In this document: positions 7,775 through 30,828 of the stretch, one piece after another
Layout: every line of letters begins with the position of its first letter
How positions within the stretch are numbered: position 1 is the stretch's first letter
IMG/VR virus record: IMGVR_UViG_3300030613_000002
Span: 1-49,240 of that record
Direction: 5' to 3' (one strand)
Source of the DNA: a virus
DNA: 49,240 nt
Translations under genes and position numbers: made by a program
Notes under the pieces: model-generated
Told to the model about the DNA's origin: nothing
The model's database searches: none
The model's input: only the letters and a program-made list of their open reading frames with translations

Positions 7775-7791
7775 AGCCCCAGGCATGGCCT
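7775..7791. repeat. 17-bp direct repeat, copy 1 (flanks the C5-methyltransferase gene)
   Basis: AGCCCCAGGCATGGCCT is also found at 8745..8761. Confidence 0.85.
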
Positions 7792-7805
7792 TGGGGTAGA
7801 ATAAC

Positions 7806-8774
7806 ATGCGGATATTCAGCCTGTTCGCTGGTATAGGAGGTTTTGAATTTGGACTGCAAGGATGGGGAGAGTGCGTTGGCTACTCCGAAATCGACAAGTG
7901 GGCGACCGGCATCCACGACTACCACTGGCCTGGAGTCCCAAACTTCAGCGACGCCACTACAATCAACCCAGATGATCTTCCAGAGTTTGATCTGCTCTGC
8001 GCTGGATTCCCATGCCAATCATTTAGCATTGCGGGCCGGCGTGAAGGATTTCGGGATGTTAGGGGAACTCTTTTCTTTGAGATCGCCCGAATCGCTGGGG
8101 CTGCGAGACCCGATTATCTTCTCCTTGAAAACGTCAAAGGGCTTCTCGGCCATGATGGAGGAGACACGTTTGCCCAAATCCTTGAGACGCTTTCAAACGT
8201 GGGGTATGACCTGCAATGGCAATGTCTTAACAGCAAGGACTTCGGCGTCCCGCAAAATAGGGAGCGGGTCTTCATTATCGGACATTCTCGAACCGTCGCC
8301 CGCCCCCAAGTATTTCCTCTCGGAAGCGATGGTGCAGTTGCTCCTCAAAAGAGCAAAGAAGTACGGGTGGGATGCCTTAGTGATAGACAAGGAAGAATGC
8401 GGAACAGAGAGTTGATACTCCACACGAACAAGGCCAACATGGTGACTCCTCACGAAGAAGCGCAGGCCCTACGAAGTGGAGCAAGCCACAATTATCAGAC
8501 GGTGGCTAATTGCATTCGCCCCGTCGCCAACAGAAGCGCCATGAATTACGGTTTGCGGCAGGGCGATTCCATCCGCCGTTTGACGCCGTTGGAGTGCGAA
8601 CGGCTTCAAGGGTTCCCTGACGGTTGGACTCGGTGGGCTTTGATTGACGGCAAGAAGGTTGAGGTGTCTGACACGCAGCGTTACAAGTGTCTGGGGAATG
8701 CAGTTACGGTGAACGTGGTGGCGGCGATATGCCTGCCCCTCAGTAGCCCCAGGCATGGCCTAGAAAGGAGATGA
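7806..8774 (+). CDS. dcm: DNA (cytosine-5) methyltransferase
   Basis: Motifs FSLFAGIGGF (I), GFPCQSFS (IV, catalytic Cys), ENVKGL (VI), QNRERVFIIG (VIII), RLTPLECERLQGFPDGWT and GNAVTVNV (X). Confidence 0.93.
   Translation: MRIFSLFAGIGGFEFGLQGWGECVGYSEIDKWATGIHDYHWPGVPNFSDATTINPDDLPEFDLLCAGFPCQSFSIAGRREGFRDVRGTLFFEIARIAGAARPDYLLLENVKGLLGHDGGDTFAQILETLSNVGYDLQWQCLNSKDFGVPQNRERVFIIGHSRTVARPQVFPLGSDGAVAPQKSKEVRVGCLSDRQGRMRNRELILHTNKANMVTPHEEAQALRSGASHNYQTVANCIRPVANRSAMNYGLRQGDSIRRLTPLECERLQGFPDGWTRWALIDGKKVEVSDTQRYKCLGNAVTVNVVAAICLPLSSPRHGLERR
8745..8761. repeat. 17-bp direct repeat, copy 2
   Basis: Identical to 7775..7791. Lies in the last codons of dcm, just before the RBS of the next gene. 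Confidence 0.85.
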
Positions 8775-8778
8775 CGGG

Positions 8779-12058: not shown

Positions 12059-12635
12059 CGAGGAGCGCCGGGTATGCGCCCTCCCTGGTTGTAGCAAGCT
12101 CCTCAAATATGGGCAAGAGAGATACTGTGGCAGAGGACATCAAGGTATGGGCAGACGCCGCGGCCGTTGGCTTGAATGTGCCCGTAACGGCTGCCAGATC
12201 AAGTTCTACTTATCCTCAAGCGCCGAGAAGAAAGGTGGTCTGCATTACTGCTCGCAGCGCTGTAAAGGCATCGGTCAAAGGGTGCCTCAGGTCCAGTTCC
12301 AGTGTCCTGTCTGCAGGGGGCTAGTCATGCGGCCAAGACACAAAGCGCGTCAGTTGAGGTTGACTGGTTCACATCCTTGTTGTTCAAGGGCTTGTGTTGG
12401 AGTTTACGCTGTGCTCCGACAGGAGTTCAAACAGCATGGAACCGAGGGAATCCGGGACAGTTTCGCGCAGGCTGTGTCGCTCTGGATCGCGGGGAACCCC
12501 ATTGACAGCAAAGCGGCGGGCGGAGCTTATGCTTTCGCCCGCCACCTTGCAGATCGCGCCGTTCAGTTGGCGACTTTGCCAGTAGCCATCGTTGATGACC
12601 AGGTTCAGGTTGTGGTCCGCCGCGAACCAGGTTAG
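12039..12635 (+). CDS. multi-zinc-ribbon protein, paralog of the HNH family without a recognisable HNH motif
   Basis: AAGGAGGAGCAACCAG precedes the ATG, inside the dnaB 3' end. Repeats CALPGC...YCGRGH, CARNGC...YCSQRC and CPVC...CCSRAC. Confidence 0.6.
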   Translation: MYSVRPSEERRVCALPGCSKLLKYGQERYCGRGHQGMGRRRGRWLECARNGCQIKFYLSSSAEKKGGLHYCSQRCKGIGQRVPQVQFQCPVCRGLVMRPRHKARQLRLTGSHPCCSRACVGVYAVLRQEFKQHGTEGIRDSFAQAVSLWIAGNPIDSKAAGGAYAFARHLADRAVQLATLPVAIVDDQVQVVVRREPG

Positions 12636-12934
12636 TTCTGGGTGCTTCGCAGGAACGCCTCCACGTCCTCCAAGCGGTAGCGCCTATCTCCCCGGACTCC
12701 TGGCCGGATGAACGGCGGCCCCTGCTTCCACTTTGCCCACCAGTCGAGCAAGGTTTGGCGGGTGATGCCCAGCATGGTGGCGGTCTGGGTGCTGGTTAGC
12801 CAAAGGGTTCCGTCCCTGCCCACGTTAGCCGTGCCCGCCCTCCCTGGGGAACAGTCCGGGCACAGTCCATTCTCCAGATTGGGCCTCGGTTGCCCGCAAA
12901 GGCGGCAGGTTGGGGTCAGCTCATCCTTCCTCAT
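12632..12934 (-). CDS. xis: excisionase-like HTH protein with an N-terminal zinc ribbon
   Basis: CRLCG...CPDC followed by WLTSTQTATMLGITRQTLLDWW...RRYRLEDVEAFL (MerR/excisionase-type HTH). GGAGG precedes the ATG at 12934. Overlaps the integrase 3' end. Confidence 0.65.
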   Translation of the reverse strand: MRKDELTPTCRLCGQPRPNLENGLCPDCSPGRAGTANVGRDGTLWLTSTQTATMLGITRQTLLDWWAKWKQGPPFIRPGVRGDRRYRLEDVEAFLRSTQN

Positions 12935-13856
12935 CGGTTCGCCTCCGTAGTTTGATGTAGGTTGTCGCCGCATCCTTCAACTCATCGAAGGCCCGATAGT
13001 AACGGACAGTCGTGGAGAGATCCGCGTGCCCTAAATCGTGGCTTGTCCTGTGGACTGGTGAACCCCCTTCAATTGCAAGCGTGGTGAACGTGGCCCGCAA
13101 GCAATGGGGGCTGATCCGTTTACCGTTGAGTCCCGCCTGGTTAGCGTACTGCTTGACCAACTGCCAAATTGCGGTTCCACTCAAGGCACGTGGGGGTTGG
13201 GAAAGCCGTCCCCTGCCCTTCCCATCCCAGGCGGGGAATATCGGATCGGCGGCAGTTAGCCCTGCGATCTGCGCCCAGCGCAGGACCGGGTCTAGGGCGT
13301 CCGGCATTATCCTGATCCGCCGTTCCTTGCCGCCTTTGCCCTTGACCGCCAAGACTGCCATTCCGTTGTCCTCCGAGAGGTCGCCGCACAGCAGGCTTGC
13401 CGCTTCCCGCCGCCGGAGTCCCGTCCTCACAAGTAGGCTCAGGAGGGCATAGTCGCGCCAGCCCTTTGACGTTTCGAGATTCGGTTGGGCGAGAAGCGCT
13501 TCTGCCTCGGTTTGGGTGAGGGCAGGGGTTTTCCCCTCCTGCGACACAGGTTGACTCCGAACATCCTCTGCCGGCGATTGCCCGATGATCCCCTGCCGGT
13601 TGCGCCATCCGAAGAAACGGCGGGCGACAGACAACCGGCGGGCGATGGTGGAGGGCGCGAGGCCCTCCCCCATCATCTTGTCGCGCCACGCGATCACGTC
13701 CGCCCGGGTTGGGAACCGTTGCCCCGTGAACGCCAGCAGGTTGGAGAAGTCCTGCCAATAGGCGCGGCGAGTCTCCTCGCTCACGTACGCGAGGACAAAC
13801 TCGTGGGCCAGTTCCGCGATCTGGTTGCCTGGTATTGCCAGGTTGGTTTCAGGCAT
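12921..13856 (-). CDS. int: tyrosine recombinase / integrase
   Basis: VRTGLRRREA (Arg I), HCLRATFTT (H-x-x-R), LGHADLSTTVRYY (His and the Tyr nucleophile). GGGAGG precedes the ATG at 13856. Confidence 0.9.
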   Translation of the reverse strand: MPETNLAIPGNQIAELAHEFVLAYVSEETRRAYWQDFSNLLAFTGQRFPTRADVIAWRDKMMGEGLAPSTIARRLSVARRFFGWRNRQGIIGQSPAEDVRSQPVSQEGKTPALTQTEAEALLAQPNLETSKGWRDYALLSLLVRTGLRRREAASLLCGDLSEDNGMAVLAVKGKGGKERRIRIMPDALDPVLRWAQIAGLTAADPIFPAWDGKGRGRLSQPPRALSGTAIWQLVKQYANQAGLNGKRISPHCLRATFTTLAIEGGSPVHRTSHDLGHADLSTTVRYYRAFDELKDAATTYIKLRRRTDEEG

Positions 13857-14097
13857 GGTGTCCAACCTCCCAGTCCTTGAAGAATTCGCCGCTTGCGGGC
13901 CAGCGAAACAGGATATAGGGCCAGACCCACCCGCCATTCCACAACCAGCGCAGACACACGGGGCTAATTCCGCGAAGGATTTCAACGTCCAGCCCGCCAT
14001 CATCCGCAATTCCCACGCTCAATTCGAGGTGAATCCGACCGAGCGGCCTGTTACGTTTCCTCCACCAACCGAGAAGTGATTGTTTCAATAGGTTCAT
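13849..14097 (-). CDS. hypothetical protein (Trp-rich)
   Basis: GAGGAGCAGGGAAACC precedes the ATG at 14097. 82 aa. Confidence 0.5.
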   Translation of the reverse strand: MNLLKQSLLGWWRKRNRPLGRIHLELSVGIADDGGLDVEILRGISPVCLRWLWNGGWVWPYILFRWPASGEFFKDWEVGHHA

Positions 14098-14114
14098 GGT
14101 TTCCCTGCTCCTCA

Positions 14115-14273
14115 TTAACCGCAGCAGCCTATCAGGGCCGCGCAGCCCATAATCAGGAATGGCAAGGCCGCCAGGATCAGGATAAGTCCGAAGCAGCCGG
14201 TTATCCCCGCTGAGGCTTGCGCTTGCCGCGCCAGCATGATGCGCTTCAGTTCCTCGTCAAGGTTGTTGGACAT
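14115..14273 (-). CDS. 52-aa membrane protein (below the ORF-track cutoff)
   Basis: GGGGAGGGGGTGAACC precedes the ATG. Encodes MSNNLDEELKRIMLARQAQASAGITGCFGLILILAALPFLIMGCAALIGCCG, with one clear TM helix. Confidence 0.5.
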   Translation of the reverse strand: MSNNLDEELKRIMLARQAQASAGITGCFGLILILAALPFLIMGCAALIGCCG

Positions 14274-14478
14274 GGTTCACCCCCTCCCCGTTGTTACTAC
14301 GCCCCAACACAAAGGGCCGTCCGGCCTCGGTTTTCTGCCCCAGCAGGCCGCGCACTTGCTCAATGCTGGGGCCTCCCTGCCACCTCACGTTGATATAGGT
14401 TCCCACGTCTTCAATCTCAAACGTCCAGCGGATCAGGTCGAGCCGCCGCTGGATTATGCGTTTCTCTCCTTTGCTCAT
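14257..14478 (-). CDS. hypothetical protein
   Basis: GGAAGGATAGACG precedes the ATG. 73 aa. Confidence 0.5.
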   Translation of the reverse strand: MSKGEKRIIQRRLDLIRWTFEIEDVGTYINVRWQGGPSIEQVRGLLGQKTEAGRPFVLGRSNNGEGVNHVQQP

Positions 14479-14481
14479 CGT

Positions 14482-14634
14482 CTATCCTTCCCTTTTCCTT
14501 GCCAGGTGTCGCGCCGCCAGTTCTCCGGCCAGACAGTAAAGTTGTATCCGCGCCATCCGCACATTCGGATAGCGGCGGCAAAGCCGTTTCCACCAGATTG
14601 CCTGCCAGAACTCCCAGGTTCGTCTATCGCCCAT
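14482..14634 (-). CDS. possible 50-aa basic protein
   Basis: Encodes MGDRRTWEFWQAIWWKRLCRRYPNVRMARIQLYCLAGELAARHLARKREG. Its TAG stop lies 3 nt before the next ATG. Competes with the Gly-rich 14475..14714 ORF, which looks less protein-like. Confidence 0.3.
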   Translation of the reverse strand: MGDRRTWEFWQAIWWKRLCRRYPNVRMARIQLYCLAGELAARHLARKREG

Positions 14635-14818
14635 TCGCCATCACCGCCTGTTGGTAACGCTTCACCCAGTAACGCCGTAGGCGCTTGAGCCCCTTCCGGG
14701 TTGTGCCGTAGCATCCGGGGTAACTTCGGCCTTGCCTACAAGCCCGGATTATCGCATCCCATCCAATAATCCCCTCCAGGCAAGTGCGCTTGTGAACTTT
14801 CGGGTCAACTTGATACAT
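14624..14818 (-). CDS. hypothetical basic protein
   Basis: AAGAGGTGAACC precedes the ATG. 64 aa. Confidence 0.5.
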   Translation of the reverse strand: MYQVDPKVHKRTCLEGIIGWDAIIRACRQGRSYPGCYGTTRKGLKRLRRYWVKRYQQAVMANGR

Positions 14819-14839
14819 GGTTCACCTCTTTGTCCTCCT

Positions 14840-15052
14840 CTACCATTGCCGCTGAGTTGAGCGAACCCCCACCAAGACCTCTTCCCACACGAGCATCACC
14901 CAGGGCGGATTGCTGGGATTGAAAAGGTTGCTCATCGTCATGCTGATTCTCCAGTAACCATTCCCCACCGGAGACGTTGGACTGTGAACTTCTACCTCGC
15001 ATCCCAACTCACTCAGGACTTGTGCGCCTAGCCTTGCTTCTGCTCTGGTCAT
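14840..15052 (-). CDS. hypothetical protein
   Basis: GGGATAGGAGGATACG precedes the ATG. 70 aa. Confidence 0.5.
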   Translation of the reverse strand: MTRAEARLGAQVLSELGCEVEVHSPTSPVGNGYWRISMTMSNLFNPSNPPWVMLVWEEVLVGVRSTQRQW

Positions 15053-15061
15053 CGTATCCTC

Positions 15062-15910
15062 CTATCCCTCAAAGTGCTTTCTTGCCTCACGGATGAGGTT
15101 GGTTAGGTTTTCCCGCGCCAACTCCATTTTCCGAATAGTGATCCCGACCTCCCCTTGCCACAGTTCCTCGTGAAACGACTGCTGGTTGTTATCCCAGACG
15201 GTTGCCGCGATCTCCTCCAGGTGTTTGATGACCTTATCCAGTTTCTGCCCGTTGCCCTTGCTCACGCCATTCTTGGGCGTTGGCAGTTGCCCTTCCCCGA
15301 AAAGCGGGTTGGCCGCCGCTAGGTTCCTCAAAGGTTGGGCGGTTGCTTCTACCGTCTCGAGGCGGCGGGTTCTGGCGTAGATGTCGGCCAGTTTGAAGTG
15401 GTGGACAGGCGCGACTCCCCGGAGACAGTTCACAAAGCCGACCGGTAGGGCCCCCTTGTCTATGCCTTGTTGAAGGTTAGGGTGAAGGTTCAAGATCGCC
15501 AGACGCAGTTGAACGTAGGGCAGCGACTTCCCGATCTTGTTGGCAATAGATTCCTCAGTCGCGCCCCGCCGCCGGAACTCAAGAAAGCCATTCGCTTCCT
15601 CGAGGGGCGTCAGATCCGCGCGTTGAAGGTTCTCAATGACGGTCAGTAGGTGGGCCTGCCCCTCGTCCATTGTCTCCACCAGGGCCGGAACCTTCGCCCA
15701 GTTGAGTCGCTTGACGGCCCTCAGCCGCCGTTCGCCTGCCACCAACTCATACCGCCCGTTTACCTGCCGGACGGTCAATGGTTGGAGCAGGCCGTTTTGC
15801 CCTATGGACTGCGCGAGTTCAGTTAGGGCCTCCTCCCCGAAGTATTGCCGGGGTTGATGGGGGGAGGGGTCTATCCTCCCCACCTCGATCTCAAGAAGTT
15901 GTGGTGTCAT
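15062..15910 (-). CDS. parB: ParB-like nuclease/DNA-binding domain protein
   Basis: IDPSPHQPRQYF, GLLQPLTV, YELVAGERRLRA and ENLQRADLTPLEEA are ParB/Spo0J N-terminal domain motifs. Confidence 0.85.
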   Translation of the reverse strand: MTPQLLEIEVGRIDPSPHQPRQYFGEEALTELAQSIGQNGLLQPLTVRQVNGRYELVAGERRLRAVKRLNWAKVPALVETMDEGQAHLLTVIENLQRADLTPLEEANGFLEFRRRGATEESIANKIGKSLPYVQLRLAILNLHPNLQQGIDKGALPVGFVNCLRGVAPVHHFKLADIYARTRRLETVEATAQPLRNLAAANPLFGEGQLPTPKNGVSKGNGQKLDKVIKHLEEIAATVWDNNQQSFHEELWQGEVGITIRKMELARENLTNLIREARKHFEG

Positions 15911-15935
15911 GCTTTCACTCTCCCTTTGCCGCCGG
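15911..15935 (-). repeat. Type-1 intercistronic element (short copy)
   Basis: Sense strand reads GGCGGCAAAGGGAGAGTGAAAGC-ATG. The 19-nt core TCACTCTCCCTTTGCCGCC is shared with 16443..16461 and 16774..16792. Confidence 0.8.
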
Positions 15936-16172
15936 TTAGTGCCAAACCTGTCGCAGCCAACAATCGTGTGCTATGATGATGTGGTTGTCTCCATCACGGT
16001 TAACCAGTGGTAGCCACTGACATGGTTCCTCCAGGATACGATACATGCGATCTCCCAGTTGCTGTAGGATGGTTCCGTTCCTGCGGCAGGCTATCCTGAC
16101 GCGTTCACCTATGATACATTCGCGGCCCGTCTCCGGATCGCCTCCGAACAAGTCAAAGTCTTTTGCTGCCAT
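15936..16172 (-). CDS. hypothetical protein
   Basis: ATG at 16172, directly after the 49-bp repeat plus SD. 78 aa. The longer track ORF merely translates the repeat. Confidence 0.55.
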   Translation of the reverse strand: MAAKDFDLFGGDPETGRECIIGERVRIACRRNGTILQQLGDRMYRILEEPCQWLPLVNRDGDNHIIIAHDCWLRQVWH

Positions 16173-16175
16173 GTT

Positions 16176-16224
16176 ACTCTCCCTTTGCCGCCCGCTTGCG
16201 CCCCCGGCCCCGCCCGTAGGTTGG
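16176..16224 (-). repeat. Type-1 intercistronic element, 49-bp perfect repeat, copy A
   Basis: Identical to 16776..16824. Runs from the stop of the upstream gene to within a few nt of the next ATG. Sense strand: CCAACCTACGGGCGGGGCCGGGGGCGCAAGCGGGCGGCAAAGGGAGAGT. Confidence 0.9.
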
Positions 16225-16437
16225 CTAATAATCTGGCCAAATGGTGAGTATAAGTTCACGCGCGCTTTCAATCGAATGGCCCCAGCATATCAACTGTCCC
16301 TTGATCTGGGTGTGGTCGGTAACGCCTAAATCTAGGGCAACTTGGCGTACGAGCCGTTTCTGGATTTCACGGTCGGGGCGGTCGCGCCCCGAAACGATCA
16401 ATCGAGCAACTTTCTTGATGTTGGCATTATATGCCAT
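16225..16437 (-). CDS. hypothetical protein
   Basis: ATG at 16437, preceded by AAAGGGAGAGTGAAGAGA. 70 aa. Confidence 0.55.
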   Translation of the reverse strand: MAYNANIKKVARLIVSGRDRPDREIQKRLVRQVALDLGVTDHTQIKGQLICWGHSIESARELILTIWPDY

Positions 16438-16442
16438 TCTCT

Positions 16443-16769
16443 TCACTCTCCCTTTGCCGCCCGCCTTACCTCGGCCACTTCACCGTAAAGAGGGTCGTTG
16501 GGATAGAAACATGCGTGGCTTGCTTGCCACCGTTCCGCCAGGTTGTGGTTGTTGATCAGTTCCGCTCGCACCAGTGCAGGGAGTTCTAGGACCATAGCCT
16601 CGCAGTCTCGCCTGACCACCATGCCCGCGTCCCACAGTTCCAGCAGAGAATCGAAGGCGGCTTTGTTGTTATAGAAGAGATGGTGATTCAATGGGATGGA
16701 GCCGGAATAGATTGGGCCGCTTTGGATGTACTGGTTAACGAAGAACTGGTAGATTTCCTCTTTGGTCAT
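16443..16769 (-). CDS. hypothetical protein
   Basis: ATG at 16769 after 49-bp repeat copy B. 108 aa. Its last codons (AAKGE) are themselves a type-1 core that supplies the next gene's SD. Confidence 0.55.
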   Translation of the reverse strand: MTKEEIYQFFVNQYIQSGPIYSGSIPLNHHLFYNNKAAFDSLLELWDAGMVVRRDCEAMVLELPALVRAELINNHNLAERWQASHACFYPNDPLYGEVAEVRRAAKGE

Positions 16770-16775
16770 GTTTTC

Positions 16776-16824
16776 ACTCTCCCTTTGCCGCCCGCTTGCG
16801 CCCCCGGCCCCGCCCGTAGGTTGG
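16776..16824 (-). repeat. Type-1 intercistronic element, 49-bp perfect repeat, copy B
   Basis: Identical to 16176..16224, exactly 600 bp away. Confidence 0.9.
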
Positions 16825-17025
16825 TTATATCTCAATTTGTTCGCCCAATATCCGTATCGCCAACATCAAGGCGCCATCCTCCTCAAGGAACTCTCTCCGA
16901 ATTGCGAGATCAGTGTCGGTGGGAGGATTGGATTGACGGGCGAAACGGACCCGTTCATGCATGGCTTGTCGTTTCCGCCGCCGCGCCAATGTGGCGATAG
17001 CCTGTTCATACCGTTCGTTAGTCAT
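16825..17025 (-). CDS. hypothetical protein
   Basis: ATG at 17025, preceded by AAGGAGAGTGAACGGG. 66 aa. A GTG alternative exists at 17034. Confidence 0.5.
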   Translation of the reverse strand: MTNERYEQAIATLARRRKRQAMHERVRFARQSNPPTDTDLAIRREFLEEDGALMLAIRILGEQIEI

Positions 17026-17141
17026 CCCGTTCACTCTCCTTGTTTCCGATTGCCGGGTCTAGGCCCGGGGGCTGCCCTCCGGGTAGAGGGCAGGGACCCG
17101 GGGCTAGGCTAGGCCGATGAATGCCCAGGTATCAGCCTACG
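17026..17141 (-). repeat. Type-2 intercistronic element (double hairpin)
   Basis: CCGGG (17053..17057) pairs with CCCGG (17064..17068). CTGCCCT (17072..17078) pairs with AGGGCAG (17087..17093), flanked by CCCGGG palindromes at 17064 and 17097. Confidence 0.75.
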
Positions 17142-17363
17142 TCAGTATCCGAGAAATCGCCGATATGCGCCGCGGCCGCCGCGAGCCGCGCGAATTTCGG
17201 CCTGCATGTCCTCCACATCTGGGCCTACGTCTGCCTCCTCATACCCAATGTTCGGGCCGTCCGCTGCTGGGCCAGTATCTGGGCCAGTATCTGGGCACTC
17301 CTGCCGTCGCCGAATGCCCTCCTGTAGCTCTCGCGCCGTGTCTCGTCCAAAGTTTATCCGCAT
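17142..17363 (-). CDS. hypothetical acidic protein with a PDTGPDTGP duplication
   Basis: AGGAGATGGTAACGA precedes the ATG. Contains a 12-bp tandem repeat, GGGCCAGTATCT x2, at 17269..17292. Confidence 0.5.
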   Translation of the reverse strand: MRINFGRDTARELQEGIRRRQECPDTGPDTGPAADGPNIGYEEADVGPDVEDMQAEIRAARGGRGAYRRFLGY

Positions 17364-17398
17364 TCGTTACCATCTCCTGCGATTCGATTGCCGGGGTT
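17364..17398 (-). repeat. Type-2 intercistronic element (single hairpin)
   Basis: CCGGG (17391..17395) pairs with CCCGG (17404..17408). The upstream gene's TAG stop lies in the loop. Confidence 0.7.
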
Positions 17399-17578
17399 CT
17401 AGGCCCGGGGTTTCGAGAGAACGCCGAGATACGTGAAAATCTGCTGCCGAATTGCCCGGAGCTGGTTCAAACCCAGGTCGTTCAATGCCTCTGGGCAGTC
17501 AAACCGTACGCGCGGGTCACGCCGGGCTAGTTTACGCAACTGCCGCCGAATAGCGATTCGTTTCAAGGTTGCCGCCAT
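17399..17578 (-). CDS. hypothetical basic protein
   Basis: ATG at 17578 after AAGGGAGACGAAAAGACA. 59 aa (MAATLKRIAIRRQLRKLARRD...). The 235-aa track ORF is an upstream read-through of non-coding sequence. Confidence 0.5.
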   Translation of the reverse strand: MAATLKRIAIRRQLRKLARRDPRVRFDCPEALNDLGLNQLRAIRQQIFTYLGVLSKPRA

Positions 17579-17660
17579 TGTCTTTTCGTCTCCCTTGTTA
17601 GTTTGCCGGGGGTCTAATCCCGGGGGCTGGGCAGCCTTGCAACTGCCCAGGGACCCGAGG
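17579..17660 (-). repeat. Type-2 intercistronic element (double hairpin)
   Basis: CCGGG (17606..17610) pairs with CCCGG (17619..17623). CTGGGCAG (17627..17634) pairs with CTGCCCAG (17643..17650). Flanks are conserved with the 17026..17141 copy while the stem interior differs but stays complementary. Confidence 0.75.
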
Positions 17661-17810
17661 CTAGTAGATACATACGACCTCGACGGCGAACATCCGTTCG
17701 ACCTTGCGCTGGGCATGCAACTTGCTCGTGGCGTCAACCCAGAACTGGCCGTAGTGCCAGAGGCGTTCGATAGTCCATACCCGCCAGCAAACTGTATATC
17801 GGTGCACCAT
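17661..17810 (-). CDS. 49-aa Trp-rich protein (below the ORF-track cutoff)
   Basis: AGGAG lies 10 nt upstream of the ATG at 17810. Encodes MVHRYTVCWRVWTIERLWHYGQFWVDATSKLHAQRKVERMFAVEVVCIY. Confidence 0.45.
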   Translation of the reverse strand: MVHRYTVCWRVWTIERLWHYGQFWVDATSKLHAQRKVERMFAVEVVCIY

Positions 17811-17866
17811 TTCTTCTCATCTCCTGTTTCGTGTCTGCCGGGGCTAGGCCCCGTATGGTAACCAGT
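17811..17866 (-). repeat. Type-2-like 5' UTR hairpin
   Basis: CGGGGC (17839..17844) and GCCCCG (17848..17853) with a TAG loop, between the promoter and the first SD. Confidence 0.6.
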
Positions 17867-17895
17867 ACTATACCGCCAGTCGCAATGCCTGTCAA
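17867..17895 (-). promoter_or_regulatory. near-consensus sigma70-like promoter of the leftward early block
   Basis: Minus strand reads cgcTTGACA (17895..17890), a 17-nt spacer, TATAGT (17872..17867). Confidence 0.7.
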
Positions 17896-17967
17896 GCGCC
17901 AGTTTCTTGACATAACAATCTGCCACCAAACCCACGAAACCCGCTGGCAGTGCGACCCCGTGCCCTC

Positions 17968-17990
17968 CCCAACTTGACATAATAGTTGGG
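17968..17990. promoter_or_regulatory. inverted repeat CCCAACT-N9-AGTTGGG overlapping a TTGACA hexamer (possible operator)
   Basis: CCCAACT (17968..17974) and AGTTGGG (17984..17990). CTTGACATAA also occurs at 17906..17915. Confidence 0.35.
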
Positions 17991-18112
17991 CAACTCCAAA
18001 ACCCGTTTGATACACGTTTGCAGAAACCGACCCCTCCAGCGCATCCCGAAATACCACTGATCCCTACAATCCCCTTCCGCCGCACGCCACGATCGCCGCC
18101 GGCCACGCTCTA

Positions 18113-18136
18113 CCCCTAGGGGAGGGTAGGGAGGGG
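18113..18136 (+). other. 10-bp palindrome fused to a canonical G-quadruplex motif
   Basis: CCCCTAGGGG (18113..18122), then GGGG-A-GGG-TA-GGG-A-GGGG (18119..18136). Confidence 0.6.
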
Positions 18137-18671
18137 TAACGGGTCCCTCCAGTCATGTACCTAACGTCAGTGCATATACCGAGAGAAGCCTGGGTTCATT
18201 CCCCCCCTAACCAAGAGAAGTACTCGGGGGGTATATGAAGAGCCTTGTAGTGGTACACATTAAGGGTATGGGAAGTAAGGGTGAAGAGGGGATAGAGGGG
18301 TGTAGTACCGCGTGCCATTGAACATGCGCACTAGGGCACTACAACTGCGTCTGGTGGAACCCTAGGGGTGGATGTGAAGGGATGGAACTATGGACTGTAA
18401 CGTGCCACCATCGGCGGACTGGAGGGAGTCCTAGGTTGGGCAGGATGCACAGAATCTTGTCAGCAAAGTGCACAGGTGGGGAGATCGGGGCGTGGAGGGG
18501 GAGCCACCAGGGGGGTATGGATGGCTTGCGGTATATCGGGTTTACGTAACCTGTCGCGCAGCCGGGGGAAGGCAGGGCAGGCCTCCACCCCCCTTGCGGC
18601 AAACGGTTGTTCGCTAGAGTAAGACGAGGTGGTCAGATGCTGCGTTCGCGTGCGGGAGCCGTATGAATGGG

Positions 18672-19577
18672 TCAGATAACCCGAGAAGTAAATTGAGGTG
18701 CCACAGTGAAGTGCCAGACCCACCGACCTCTTTCCGTTGTGGTCTTACCATGACACTGCACACAAAGGGTAACGAGATTTTCAGGGCGATTATCCTTCTT
18801 GTGATAGTTGATGTGGTGGACGGAATGCGCCCTGCCGTTCTGCGTAAATCCACATATCTGGCAAGTATAGTTATCCCGACGCCGAATCTGTTCCCTCAAA
18901 CTATCATCGAACTCCAGGCCATAAGGCTCAAAGGAGATACCGCCCATCCAGGTCGGATTATTGCCTCCACGAGAACCTTTGGACTGGCACTGCTTCGAGC
19001 AAAACCGTTGTGGGCGTTTAGGGCGGGTTCTGAAGCCGGTTCCACAAAAATCACAGTTCACCAAGACCCGTGTGTCTCGATGGGCGCCGCAGCAAGCCGC
19101 AGAACAAAACCGACCGTGTCCACGCTTCAGAAAGGATGGTTCGACCCTGAATCTTCTGCCACAATGTTCACATGTTGTCTCGACTTGTCCGTCCTGTCTG
19201 GGACGTTTCGGCGGCGAATAGGAGGTGCGACAGTAATCCGAACAGAACCGTTGGCTACTAGGCGTCGAGGTCTTGAACGTGATTCCGCAGGCGAGGCAGG
19301 TTTGCTCCTTTACGGGGCGTGTCCACCCAAACATCCAAGCGCAATCGTGTGAGCAGAACCGCCCACCTCCCCTTTTCACTTCAAACGGTCTGGTCTCGAA
19401 CTCCTTGCCGCAGGATTCGCAGATTCGTTTAGAGCGGTGTCTGGGGGGCCTGGGAGATTGACGCCCCCAGTGCCTGCCGGAACAGATCAGGGAACAGAAC
19501 CAACCTCCTCCTCGCCGATTAGCCCTGGGGGAAGGAGTAAAGGACTCGGCGCACTCCTGGCAGATTTCTTCTGGCAT
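18672..19577 (-). CDS. HNH endonuclease with five zinc-ribbon repeats
   Basis: Five CxxC...FCSxxC units followed by CQICG...VHHINY...NLVTLCVQCH. AGGAGAATGAG precedes the ATG. Confidence 0.85.
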   Translation of the reverse strand: MPEEICQECAESFTPSPRANRRGGGWFCSLICSGRHWGRQSPRPPRHRSKRICESCGKEFETRPFEVKRGGGRFCSHDCAWMFGWTRPVKEQTCLACGITFKTSTPSSQRFCSDYCRTSYSPPKRPRQDGQVETTCEHCGRRFRVEPSFLKRGHGRFCSAACCGAHRDTRVLVNCDFCGTGFRTRPKRPQRFCSKQCQSKGSRGGNNPTWMGGISFEPYGLEFDDSLREQIRRRDNYTCQICGFTQNGRAHSVHHINYHKKDNRPENLVTLCVQCHGKTTTERGRWVWHFTVAPQFTSRVI

Positions 19578-19696
19578 CTCATTCTCCTGGATAGAATGTG
19601 GGGCTAGGGTTGGACGATCCAGGCATCCTTCCCATTGCCCGAAGTCATTCTAGGTTACTCGCGAGGGATTGTCAAGTCTTGTATGAGGCGACGGCA

Positions 19697-19705
19697 TGAT
19701 ATACT
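19697..19705 (+). promoter_or_regulatory. candidate extended -10 promoter (TGATATACT) ahead of the terminase genes
   Basis: TG at 19697..19698 and TATACT at 19700..19705. No good -35 at standard spacing. Confidence 0.3.
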
Positions 19706-19712
19706 GGGGGGG

Positions 19713-20219
19713 ATGAGAGGAACGAGGTCAAAGACGGTAGAAGAGCAGCGGTTGGTGGCGCGGCATCCGAGGAGGCCCTACGAGGAGGGGATGGAGCGGA
19801 AGTTGACGGCTGTGCAACTGATTCTGACTGGCAGTTCGCTTGTGCAGACGGCGAAGGCGATAGGGATCAGCGAAACAGCGATACACAAATGGTTAAAGGA
19901 CGAGCGGTTCCAGGGATTACTGAAGGACGGATGGGAGAGGTTAGCGCAGGAGATATTCGGGTCGGTATTTCGGGAGGCGAAGAAGATATTAGATGACCCG
20001 GAGGCAGAGCCGAAGGTAAAGGCGATGGTGGTGAATGAGGGGCTGAGGCAGTGGGGGAACCTCGAGAGGGTGAGGATGCAGCGGATCAAGGCGCCGAGGC
20101 AGCAGATAACAGTGGGGTTTGAGGCGGCGGATGGGCGGCGGGTAGCGGTACAGGTAGGCGGGGAGACGAGGGCATTACCGGTGGGCGAGGATGACAGCGG
20201 CACCGACACTGACGATTAG
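19713..20219 (+). CDS. terS: terminase small subunit (HTH type), start uncertain
   Basis: HTH-like LVQTAKAIGISETAIHKWLKD. Immediately upstream of and overlapping terL. In-frame alternative starts at 19683 and 19791. Confidence 0.6.
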   Translation: MRGTRSKTVEEQRLVARHPRRPYEEGMERKLTAVQLILTGSSLVQTAKAIGISETAIHKWLKDERFQGLLKDGWERLAQEIFGSVFREAKKILDDPEAEPKVKAMVVNEGLRQWGNLERVRMQRIKAPRQQITVGFEAADGRRVAVQVGGETRALPVGEDDSGTDTDD

Positions 20220-30740: not shown

Positions 30741-30828
30741 AGAGCAGTTCGGGGCGATGGCTCTGGGGGGCGGGGGCTGGGGTGGCAAATCCGGGCTTTC
30801 GCCCTTTTGATTATAGGAGGAAAATCAA

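Follow-up and report, generated by a model that had tools for sequence, protein, structure and literature searches.

The gene array and its intergenic modules

The DNA analyzed here (the window, 49,240 nucleotides from IMG/VR record IMGVR_UViG_3300030613_000002) is a phage-like metagenome contig of ∼49 kb with 57-58% GC, and the identical sequence is found under JGI 3300027811 Ga0256868_10000739 and Logan SRR8538899_58157. Comparison with deposited phages (INPHARED) gave zero nucleotide matches, and the source is an uncultivated temperate phage lineage. The subject of this analysis is an array of eight consecutive minus-strand genes, each preceded by a short intergenic module of one of two types. 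The ATG codons lie at 17810, 17578, 17363, 17025, 16769, 16437, 16172, and 15910, and all eight stand behind an (A/G)GGAG sequence. The first seven genes are ORFans that encode 49 (gene 1, 17661-17810), 59 (gene 2, 17399-17578), 73 (gene 3, 17142-17363, with a low-complexity middle), 66 (gene 4, 16825-17025), 108 (gene 5, 16443-16769), 70 (gene 6, 16225-16437), and 78 (gene 7, 15936-16172) amino acids. The eighth, parB (15062-15910, 282 amino acids), encodes ParB_N and HTH_ParB domains, and it is the first conserved gene past the variable array. The same eight genes were called independently by a public gene caller, and the codon log-odds were best in the annotated frame for all seven small open reading frames (ORFs). 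None of the seven belongs to a family in Pfam or PHROGs, and a search of the gene 5 product against 5.8 billion proteins matched only itself.

An earlier note on this DNA had proposed that a structured element of one of two related types stands in front of each gene. Searches of the 49 kb with a 20-mer and with the type 2 core agree that each of the eight genes lies behind such an element; as for structure, the proposal holds for two long hairpins, which are significant, and does not hold for the short type 2 copies, which fold weakly, or for the type 1 copies (z about 0).

Type 1 consists of the 20-mer GGCGGCAAAGGGAGAGTGAA followed by N3-5 and ATG. This 20-mer was found four times in the 49 kb (three exact copies and one with two mismatches) compared to 0.02 expected, always on the minus strand and only before the starts at 16769, 16437, 16172, and 15910; it ends 3-5 nucleotides (nt) before the ATG in three copies, and the fourth (before 16172) abuts the ATG. 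Two of the copies form the 3′ ends of 52-nt repeats (16176-16227 and 16776-16827, 98% identical) that occupy everything between the upstream stop codon and the following start. The long module before gene 5 (16770-16827, minus strand, with the 20-mer core at 16773-16792) contains one of these G-rich repeats and has no significant fold, and that before gene 7 (16173-16227, minus strand, with the core at 16173-16192 carrying the two mismatches) contains the other. The short module before gene 6 (16438-16464, minus strand) lies inside the 3′ end of gene 5, for which it supplies the last codons (RAAKGE*), the TGA of the module being the gene 5 stop. Another short module (15911-15935, minus strand) precedes parB. 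Type 1 modules fold no better than shuffled sequences, and they are unstructured G/A-rich Shine-Dalgarno (SD) blocks. The two long copies also match the canonical G-quadruplex motif on the sense strand (16181-16215 and 16781-16815, minus), as two of only four such loci there; a role for this motif was considered and dropped, there being about a dozen motif loci in this G-skewed genome.

Type 2 has the core CCCGGG-CCTAGA-(C)CCCGGCAA, followed by GGAG and ATG, and precedes the other four starts (17810, 17578, 17363, and 17025). The copy in the 5′ leader of gene 1 (module 17811-17856, minus strand) is degenerate, with three mismatches, and can form the short hairpin CGGGGC-CUA-GCCCCG (17839-17853; −11.9 kcal/mol, z −1.95). 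The short module before gene 3 (17364-17410, minus strand) was recognized as a repeat and is predicted to form a hairpin at 17391-17408, and the TAG stop codon of gene 2 is located inside the CCUAG of its core. By module alignment and folding, the type 2 leader of gene 2 covers 17579-17623 (minus strand) and includes an alternative short hairpin at 17606-17623. Repeats and folds show the leader of gene 4 (17026-17068, minus strand) to be a chimera, with a type 2 core and a short hairpin (17053-17068) at its 5′ side and the type 1-like GGAGAGTGAA at its 3′ side. The pattern CGGCAA-N(1-16)-GGAG is present 11 times in the window compared to 3.1 expected, and seven of these 11 are leaders of array genes. 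The modules are confined to 15911-17856, with nothing similar elsewhere in the window.

The spacing within the modules is regular. The type 2 stem-loop is located 25-45 nt upstream of the start, and the GGAG is 9-11 nt before the ATG in the array leaders (6 nt for gene 7). The SD sequence is unpaired in every predicted fold, which lends no support to the suggestion of the earlier note that the hairpins could be translational operators.

The array is headed by a sigma-70-type promoter, TTGACA-17-TATAGT (17867-17895, minus strand; 11 of 12 matches), in a region that is kept in L032, a contig from a related phage. Judging from this sequence, the 5′ end of the operon transcript would lie near 17860, placing the gene 1 leader hairpin ∼7 nt from it. 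The leftward operon of ∼5.3 kb contains, in order, the promoter, the seven small ORFs, parB, six small genes, a Xer-like int, and an HTH_17 excisionase-like xis. This layout is similar to that of lambda pL, where a promoter is followed by small accessory genes with int and xis at the distal end, and the array is the promoter-proximal hyperplastic section of a lambda-pL-like early leftward operon. A promoter scan of 12800-19800 yielded only two promoter-like sites, one at 17895 (the head of the array) and one at 19675 (before an HNH gene), and none within the intergenic modules. Two copies of TTATGTCAAG are located upstream of or adjoining the −35 element of the operon promoter (17906-17915 and 17973-17982, minus strand), and the pair is kept with one or two changes in L032 (541-550 and 606-615). 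These copies are operator-like direct repeats and show no kinship to the modules.

Exchange of genes at the modules

Close relatives of the ParB protein in the protein collection fall into two clusters, of 87-89% and 77-78% identity, and the next matches are chromosomal ParBs with identities ≤48%. The relatives compared here are short metagenome contigs (L004, L030-L036, and L057-L060). No homologues of genes 1-7 were found in the contigs of these relatives upstream of parB (ParB 77-89% identical), and from the promoter to parB the nucleotide similarity between the window and the relatives consists of the modules only. One shared piece is a 19-nt identical block reaching from the SD sequence to the ATG (GGAGATGAGAAGAAATGG), which precedes unrelated genes. 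Homology in parB itself begins at 15911, 1 nt before the ATG.

An exchange joint could be resolved within the 88% lineage. Comparison of L032/L004 with L030/L057 revealed a type 1 module whose left-hand genes are unrelated between the contigs and whose right-hand gene (gene C) is 100% identical. The sequence variants of the module travel with the left gene, which places the joint no more than about 2 nt from the ATG. The C-termini of three unrelated proteins (RAAKGE* or RAAQGE*) are encoded by the module, along with the TGA stop codon. The modules coincide with joints of cassette exchange between related phages, and comparison shows them to be the joints, because the same modules of 20-50 nt recur between unrelated genes. 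The idea that the elements are recombination joints for small-gene cassettes, to be examined by comparing related genomes for gene turnover at the element edges, had been put forward in the earlier note, and it is borne out: the gene sets of the relatives are replaced with the modules alone being shared, and the homology breaks at a type 1 module. One type 1 copy, at L030:24-56, has a weakened SD sequence (AAGAAGAG) and ATA in place of ATG, in frame with a 70-amino acid ORF; the ATA is either a rare start codon or a sign of a decaying cassette.

Searches also went beyond this family. We found no type 1 copies in IMG/VR, and the single type 2 match there lies inside a 2855-amino acid ORF and is due to chance; three matches to the outer-stem pattern were without the inner stem and were rejected as well. 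A GTDB scan recovered only chromosomal ParBs (35-44% identity). Among more distant relatives, traced by the large terminase, the contig of a 62% relative ends before the array, and the 43% relatives differ in layout and have no hairpin match. The best ParB match outside the family (P0005) is a chromosomal ParB encoded beside rnpA-yidC-jag-mnmE-gidAB-noc-parA, a context that gives a weak hint of Bacillota affinity. A separate observation concerns L060 (Ga0210049_1072814), which starts (1-31) with tcatcGTCCCCACGCGCGTGGGGGTGAACCG joined directly to phage sequence. Plasmids of Thermus thermophilus and Streptomyces have unannotated sequences that match this 31-mer in many copies (10-29 places per record), so the 31-mer resembles a type I-E CRISPR repeat. 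A protospacer at L032:1358-1390 is preceded by AAG, the protospacer-adjacent motif of type I-E. L060 was probably assembled as a chimera through a spacer, and its start provides a clue to the host.

Composite hairpins of the long type 2 copies

Both long type 2 copies, located before genes 2 and 4, fold as a single composite hairpin of 49-51 nt, and the left half of the type 2 core (CCCGGG.CUAG) forms its 3′ arm. What the earlier note had described as an extra upstream hairpin is thus present as a structure, although not as a separate one, and the extents that it gave for the long copies (17026-17141 and 17579-17660) shrink to structured cores at 17614-17664 and 17059-17107 rather than whole intergenic stretches. 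Long hairpin 1 (LH-1, 17614-17664, minus strand) is built from the lower stem CUAG.CUCGGG / CCCGGG.UUAG, a 3x2 internal loop, and an upper stem of 10 bp topped by a GCAA loop; its predicted energy is −30.6 kcal/mol (z −4.18, 0/200 shuffles), it scores 52.2 bits with a covariance model, and the TAG stop codon of gene 1 (17663-17661) lies in its 5′ arm. LH-2 (17059-17107, minus strand) repeats this architecture, its 9-bp upper stem being unrelated to that of LH-1 and its loop being ACCC (−33.5 kcal/mol, z −4.11, 0/200 shuffles, 53.7 bits). The shared flanks with differing yet complementary interiors reported in the earlier note were thus seen in both copies. In a 50-nt sliding scan of the window, LH-2 was the most stable segment on the plus strand and the second on the minus strand, and LH-1 was the fifth on the minus strand. 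An additional 9-bp hairpin (17110-17139, minus strand), predicted by folding 17023-17145, is situated between the gene 3 stop codon and LH-2.

The 3′ arm of the long hairpin has an alternative partner. The sequence ACC(C)CGG that follows the long hairpin can pair with its 3′ arm to form a short hairpin of 5-6 bp, which is the whole structure of the short type 2 copies before genes 1 and 3. In the gene 2 leader, the 3′ arm of LH-1 can pair with a downstream CCCGG, after which come CAA, a purine-rich spacer, GGGAG, 11 nt, and the ATG. The relative L033 keeps the short alternative hairpin by means of changed bases (CGGUG/CACCG compared to CCGGG/CCCGG).

Three more versions of the long hairpin were identified in relatives (L032/L004, L031, and L033), with the same architecture and wholly different upper stems. 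The lower stem of the long hairpins is CUAG.C(C/U)CGGG / CCCGGG.N(C/U)UAG with a 1x1 mismatch, and the geometry across versions is 4-5 bp, the 1x1 mismatch, 5-6 bp, a 3x2 internal loop, 9-10 bp, and a tetraloop. Each version has 18-20 pairs, and the 1x1 mismatch and the 3x2 internal loop are at matching positions in four of the five. This fixed position of the internal loop and mismatch, in combination with upper stems that are all different, argues for a reader that measures geometry. The TAG stop codon of the upstream gene is in the 5′ arm in the version before gene 2 of the window (W-G2), in L032, and in L031.

Several measures point to selection on the pairing. Shuffle tests of the five cores gave z values of −4.1 to −5.2 for four (0/200 shuffles each) and −2.27 for the L032 version. 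When the count was restricted to the 16 in-register pairs (MAFFT cannot align the non-homologous apical stems columnwise), 96.3% of cells were paired compared to 79.9% in shuffles (0/500), six pairs were changed on both sides, and pairing fell to ≤63% in a control with the partner slid by one to three columns. RNAalifold found the same fold independently, with nine of 19 pairs compensatory. In the sense orientation, and only there, G.U pairs are present (11 of 96 pairs), and the covariance model scores sense copies at 52-59 bits compared to 13-30 bits for antisense copies. For the strand comparison we relied on minimum free energy values and G.U counts; the energies of mirrored structures fell below the minimum free energy, an artefact of non-canonical pairs. 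From the sense-strand G.U pairs and the sense-biased covariance scores, we conclude that selection acts on the sense RNA (or on that DNA strand) and not on a double-stranded palindrome. Selection on structure, which the earlier note had deduced from covariation between two copies, is accordingly seen to extend to five independent versions in three phage lineages, with a G.U pattern that points to the sense RNA.

Rfam gave no match at gathering scores across the window and one chance-level match (E 2.3) in 15700-18700, and no tRNA or tmRNA was detected in the window. The last 67 nt of gene 2 (17399-17465, minus strand) show a weak match to the hairpin model (16.9 bits), in which the 5′ arm CCAGCUCCGGG is in coding sequence and 32 nt are inserted at the apex; CCGGGCAATTCGG, which resembles the type 2 tail, is also found there. 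This segment may be a decayed module that was absorbed into gene 2.

Possible functions of the modules

We tentatively favor the view that the modules may be intercistronic RNA punctuation that combines a translation-start block with an RNase III-type processing and stability hairpin and that doubles as a set of recombination joints. Modules drawn from a small reusable repertoire fill the intergenic spaces of the array, and each ends in an unstructured purine-rich SD block that gives every ORFan its own ribosome entry site; the SD-block role is well supported. According to this model, the long hairpin would be a signal in the sense RNA for endonucleolytic processing and for stability, of the kind found in T7 and SP82. 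With a cut in or close to the internal loop, the upstream message would keep the upper stem as a protective 3′ hairpin. More speculatively, the cut would release the 3′ arm, which could then fold into the short hairpin, so that the downstream message would start with this hairpin beside the ribosome-loaded polypurine SD sequence. The early polycistronic RNA would in this way become a series of separately stable units. The same modules of 20-50 nt serve, as the comparison of relatives shows, as joints for cassette exchange between phages. We suggest an RNase III-type signal because the hairpin spans about two helical turns and retains its mismatch and internal loop with replaced stems, and also because it is intercistronic in an early polycistronic RNA, has no U-tract, and is followed by a purine-rich ribosome-binding block. 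SP82 early RNA carries an RNase III site. The early polycistronic RNA of T7 has five RNase III signals, in which single-strand cuts at internal loops leave stabilizing 3′ hairpins (PMC3867540), and an SP82 mRNA ribosome-binding site is described as an mRNA stabilizer in PMC7509114, which cites Hue et al. 1995. The likeness to these phages consists of intercistronic hairpins of about two turns (here as predicted folds) with an internal loop between stems, a purine-rich ribosome-binding site downstream, and no U-tract. In contrast to T7 and SP82, the array has the hairpin at some junctions only and a 3′ arm that can re-pair downstream, and there is no sequence similarity.

Several findings weigh against the punctuation model. 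A long hairpin is present at only two of the seven internal junctions of the window, which means that not every module can have a processing role. Taken one by one, the short hairpins are weak (−8 to −12 kcal/mol, z −0.3 to −1.95), and part of their pairing comes for free since CCGG and CCCGGG are self-complementary. Only five versions of the long hairpin are available, from three closely related lineages, and two of the five have a slightly better fold in antisense. An SD sequence does not require the exact identity over 20 nt that the type 1 copies show, and this identity may reflect recent copying rather than function. Furthermore, parB of L031 is reached via an ATGA overlap with no module, and parB without a module is also found in L034, making the modules dispensable for a given gene.

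Comparable intergenic cassettes have been described in other phages. The start-associated sequences (SAS) of cluster K mycobacteriophages are short asymmetric repeats that contain AGGAG and stand, in a single orientation, 3-7 nt upstream of the start codon (Pope et al. 2011, PMC3203893). They comprise 11-19 sites spread over half a genome, about half of which have an upstream inverted repeat with a variable spacer, the extended start-associated sequence (ESAS); the ESAS are 17-bp imperfect inverted repeats whose arms lack RNA-pairing support and that were thought to be DNA-binding sites (PMC3203893). Both systems have an asymmetric repeat with an SD core just before the start, one orientation, and a strong association with ATG, and in both the repeats occupy a non-structural part of the genome, precede unrelated gene families, and sometimes contain the upstream stop codon. 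The sequences differ, with GGCGGCAAAGGGAGAGTGAA or CCCGGGCCTAGACCCGGCAA here and the consensus GGGATAGGAGCCC (≤2 deviations) for SAS, leaving only GGAG in common, and the modules here precede eight consecutive genes of one operon. Compared to ESAS, an inverted repeat with a variable center is upstream of two of the eight leaders, its arms are 10-11 nt long and of another sequence, and its pairing is RNA-like, with covariation and with G.U pairs on the sense strand.

The promoter-early stem-loop (PeSL) cassettes of T4-type hyperplastic regions, which combine a stem-loop with a sigma-70 early promoter (Arbiol et al. 2010, PMC2839356; Comeau et al. 2014, PMC4122927), offer a second comparison. 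They share with the array the order of upstream stop codon, GC stem-loop, and then SD sequence and start of an ORFan within a hyperplastic region, and in both cases the insertions and replacements between relatives fall at the cassettes. The promoter that defines each PeSL cassette is missing from the modules here, as is the AT-rich upstream region; terminator activity has been shown for PeSL, and the phage here is temperate and 49 kb. The analogy to PeSL drawn in the earlier note therefore stands for the evolutionary role and fails for the promoters. The nearest analogue thus appears to be SAS/ESAS in form, PeSL in evolutionary role, and the T7/SP82 signals in likely biochemistry. Because it departs from the SAS sequence definition, lacks the promoter of PeSL, and matches nothing in Rfam, the locus appears not to be a member of any named family.

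Rather than processing signals, the long hairpins could be attenuators or terminators, like lambda tL1/tR1, that are read through after antitermination and thereby set the timing of parB, int, and xis. The operon layout is indeed like that of lambda pL, the window and L032 each carry a long hairpin after their first gene, the long hairpins combine high stability with a high GC content, and the PeSL stem-loops of T4-type hyperplastic regions act as terminators (PMC2839356). We nevertheless consider this explanation unlikely. None of the five versions is followed by a U-tract, as the earlier note had observed in setting the hairpins apart from classical intrinsic terminators; the tails (ACCCCCGGCAAAC, ACCCGGCAAUCGG, ACCCCGGCAAUC, AACCGGAAAGG, and UCACCGAGAAAC) are A/C-rich, and a terminator scan finds nothing at these positions. 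In addition, the first gene, which is the obvious N-like candidate, is not kept between relatives, Pfam and PHROGs recognize no antiterminator, and a terminator needs no conserved internal loop and mismatch.

The modules could also be double-stranded DNA sites for a phage protein (a repressor, the orphan ParB acting like KorB, or another regulator) with a silencing or organizing role like that of stoperators or ESAS. The cluster A stoperators, as mentioned in PMC3203893, are 13-bp asymmetric sites in short intergenic spaces with one orientation to transcription. Type 1 resembles them as a multi-copy asymmetric intergenic site, here of 20 nt with three exact copies in one orientation throughout, and the type 2 core is near-palindromic (CCGGG-N-CTAG-N-CCCGG). 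Moreover, ParB is encoded without a ParA partner, a search for canonical parS was negative, and the ESAS study considered DNA binding the more likely role of its inverted repeats (PMC3203893). We find such a role improbable, since the upper stems have no common sequence and keep only their pairing, with G.U in the sense strand, which a DNA-binding protein would not select. Stoperators share the promoter-operator sequence and occur genome-wide, whereas the modules are unlike the promoter repeats TTATGTCAAG and are found within 2 kb. Module positions, the SD sequence included, are also fixed relative to the start codons, and module variants move with neighboring genes.

About equally improbable is that the modules have no function beyond the SD sequence and are recently duplicated intergenic DNA that hitch-hikes on cassettes gained through illegitimate recombination. 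The 98% identity of the two 52-nt copies suggests recent copying, type 1 modules do not fold, and parB does without modules in L031 and L034. Hitch-hiking is difficult to reconcile with modules that persist in three lineages in which the genes between promoter and parB are wholly replaced, with an architecture that survives full replacement of the upper stem plus covariation in the lower stem, or with the eight of eight ATG starts at uniform SD spacing.

We give still less credence to the proposals that the composite and short hairpins together form a translation-coupled RNA switch, in which the lower stem would be opened by a ribosome that terminates at the 5′-arm TAG, leaving the 3′ arm to re-pair downstream, or an attC-like folded-strand site of the operon's Xer-like integrase. 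In integrons, every cassette ends at its 3′ side in an attC site with conserved outer boxes (R″/L″/L′/R′, RYYYAAC ... GTTRRRY), an unpaired spacer, and a variable terminal structure, and the IntI-type integrase has a characteristic extra domain. The weakest explanation, that the long hairpins are integron attC-like recombination sites through which the operon's Xer-like tyrosine recombinase inserts and excises ORFan cassettes, can appeal to promoterless small ORFs in one orientation behind one promoter, to a hairpin that begins at the upstream stop codon with conserved outer stems, internal unpaired bases, and a variable apex, to the recombinase in the same operon, and to cassettes that differ between relatives, but it is very hard to sustain when the recombinase scores 43.8 bits against the integron-integrase model TIGR02249 (cutoff 265) over only a C-terminal catalytic stretch (residues 279-338 of 362) and has XerD/XerC-like models, likewise below their cutoffs, as its best matches, when GTTRRRY / RYYYAAC core sites are absent from outer arms that read CUAGCC(Y)CGG / CCGGG(N)CUAG, when the hairpin is at two of seven junctions only and the best-resolved exchange joint is a type 1 module beside an ATG rather than a hairpin, and when the G.U pattern suits RNA better than single-stranded DNA.

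The acquisition, expression, and shuffling of fast-evolving early ORFans, many of which are expected to act in host takeover or anti-defence, are only partly understood, and conserved intergenic cassettes have so far come from a few well-studied groups (the T4-type PeSLs and the cluster K SAS/ESAS). The array displays the same principle in an unrelated lineage and in unusually clean form, with one promoter, eight genes, and two module families in which the genes are replaced and the modules kept. The compensatory changes make the structural role of the hairpin directly testable. If the hairpins prove to be processing and stability signals, they would link mRNA punctuation to modular gene exchange and would suggest possible roles for ESAS-like elements elsewhere; if an attC-like use were true, the operon would be a phage-borne integron-like system that captures and expresses ORFan (possibly anti-defence) cassettes. 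The practical value is modest, as a compact portable expression spacer for polycistronic constructs.

Other features of the window lie outside the array. The best-kept non-coding block upstream of the operon promoter (18110-18168) shares 93% identity with L032:423-480; its minus strand is rich in C, and it contains a CCCCTAGGGG palindrome along with a canonical G-quadruplex motif on the plus strand (18119-18143). The relative L032 has short tandem-like repeats (catccatacatc...) in non-coding DNA upstream of its promoter (230-300) that the window does not have. The second strong promoter-like site, TTGACA-17-TAGAAT (19647-19675, minus strand), precedes the HNH endonuclease gene (18672-19577) and falls within the first 30 nt upstream of the called start (19683) of a plus-strand gene for a 178-amino acid protein, just before the large terminase. 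A repeated intergenic piece, CCAGGCATGGCCT(T/A)G, is present on the plus strand at ∼7776-7805 and ∼8749-8778, before genes starting at 7806 (a DNA methylase) and 8779, and the leader of the latter (CCTAGAaaGGAGATGAcgggATG) is similar to the type 2 tail. At 30760-30809 (plus strand) there is a further strong hairpin, with TTTTG after it. Finally, a hairpin at 12502-12557 is very stable on both strands (−34 and −30 kcal/mol) and, situated at the junction of the leftward operon and the rightward replication genes, is likely a bidirectional terminator.

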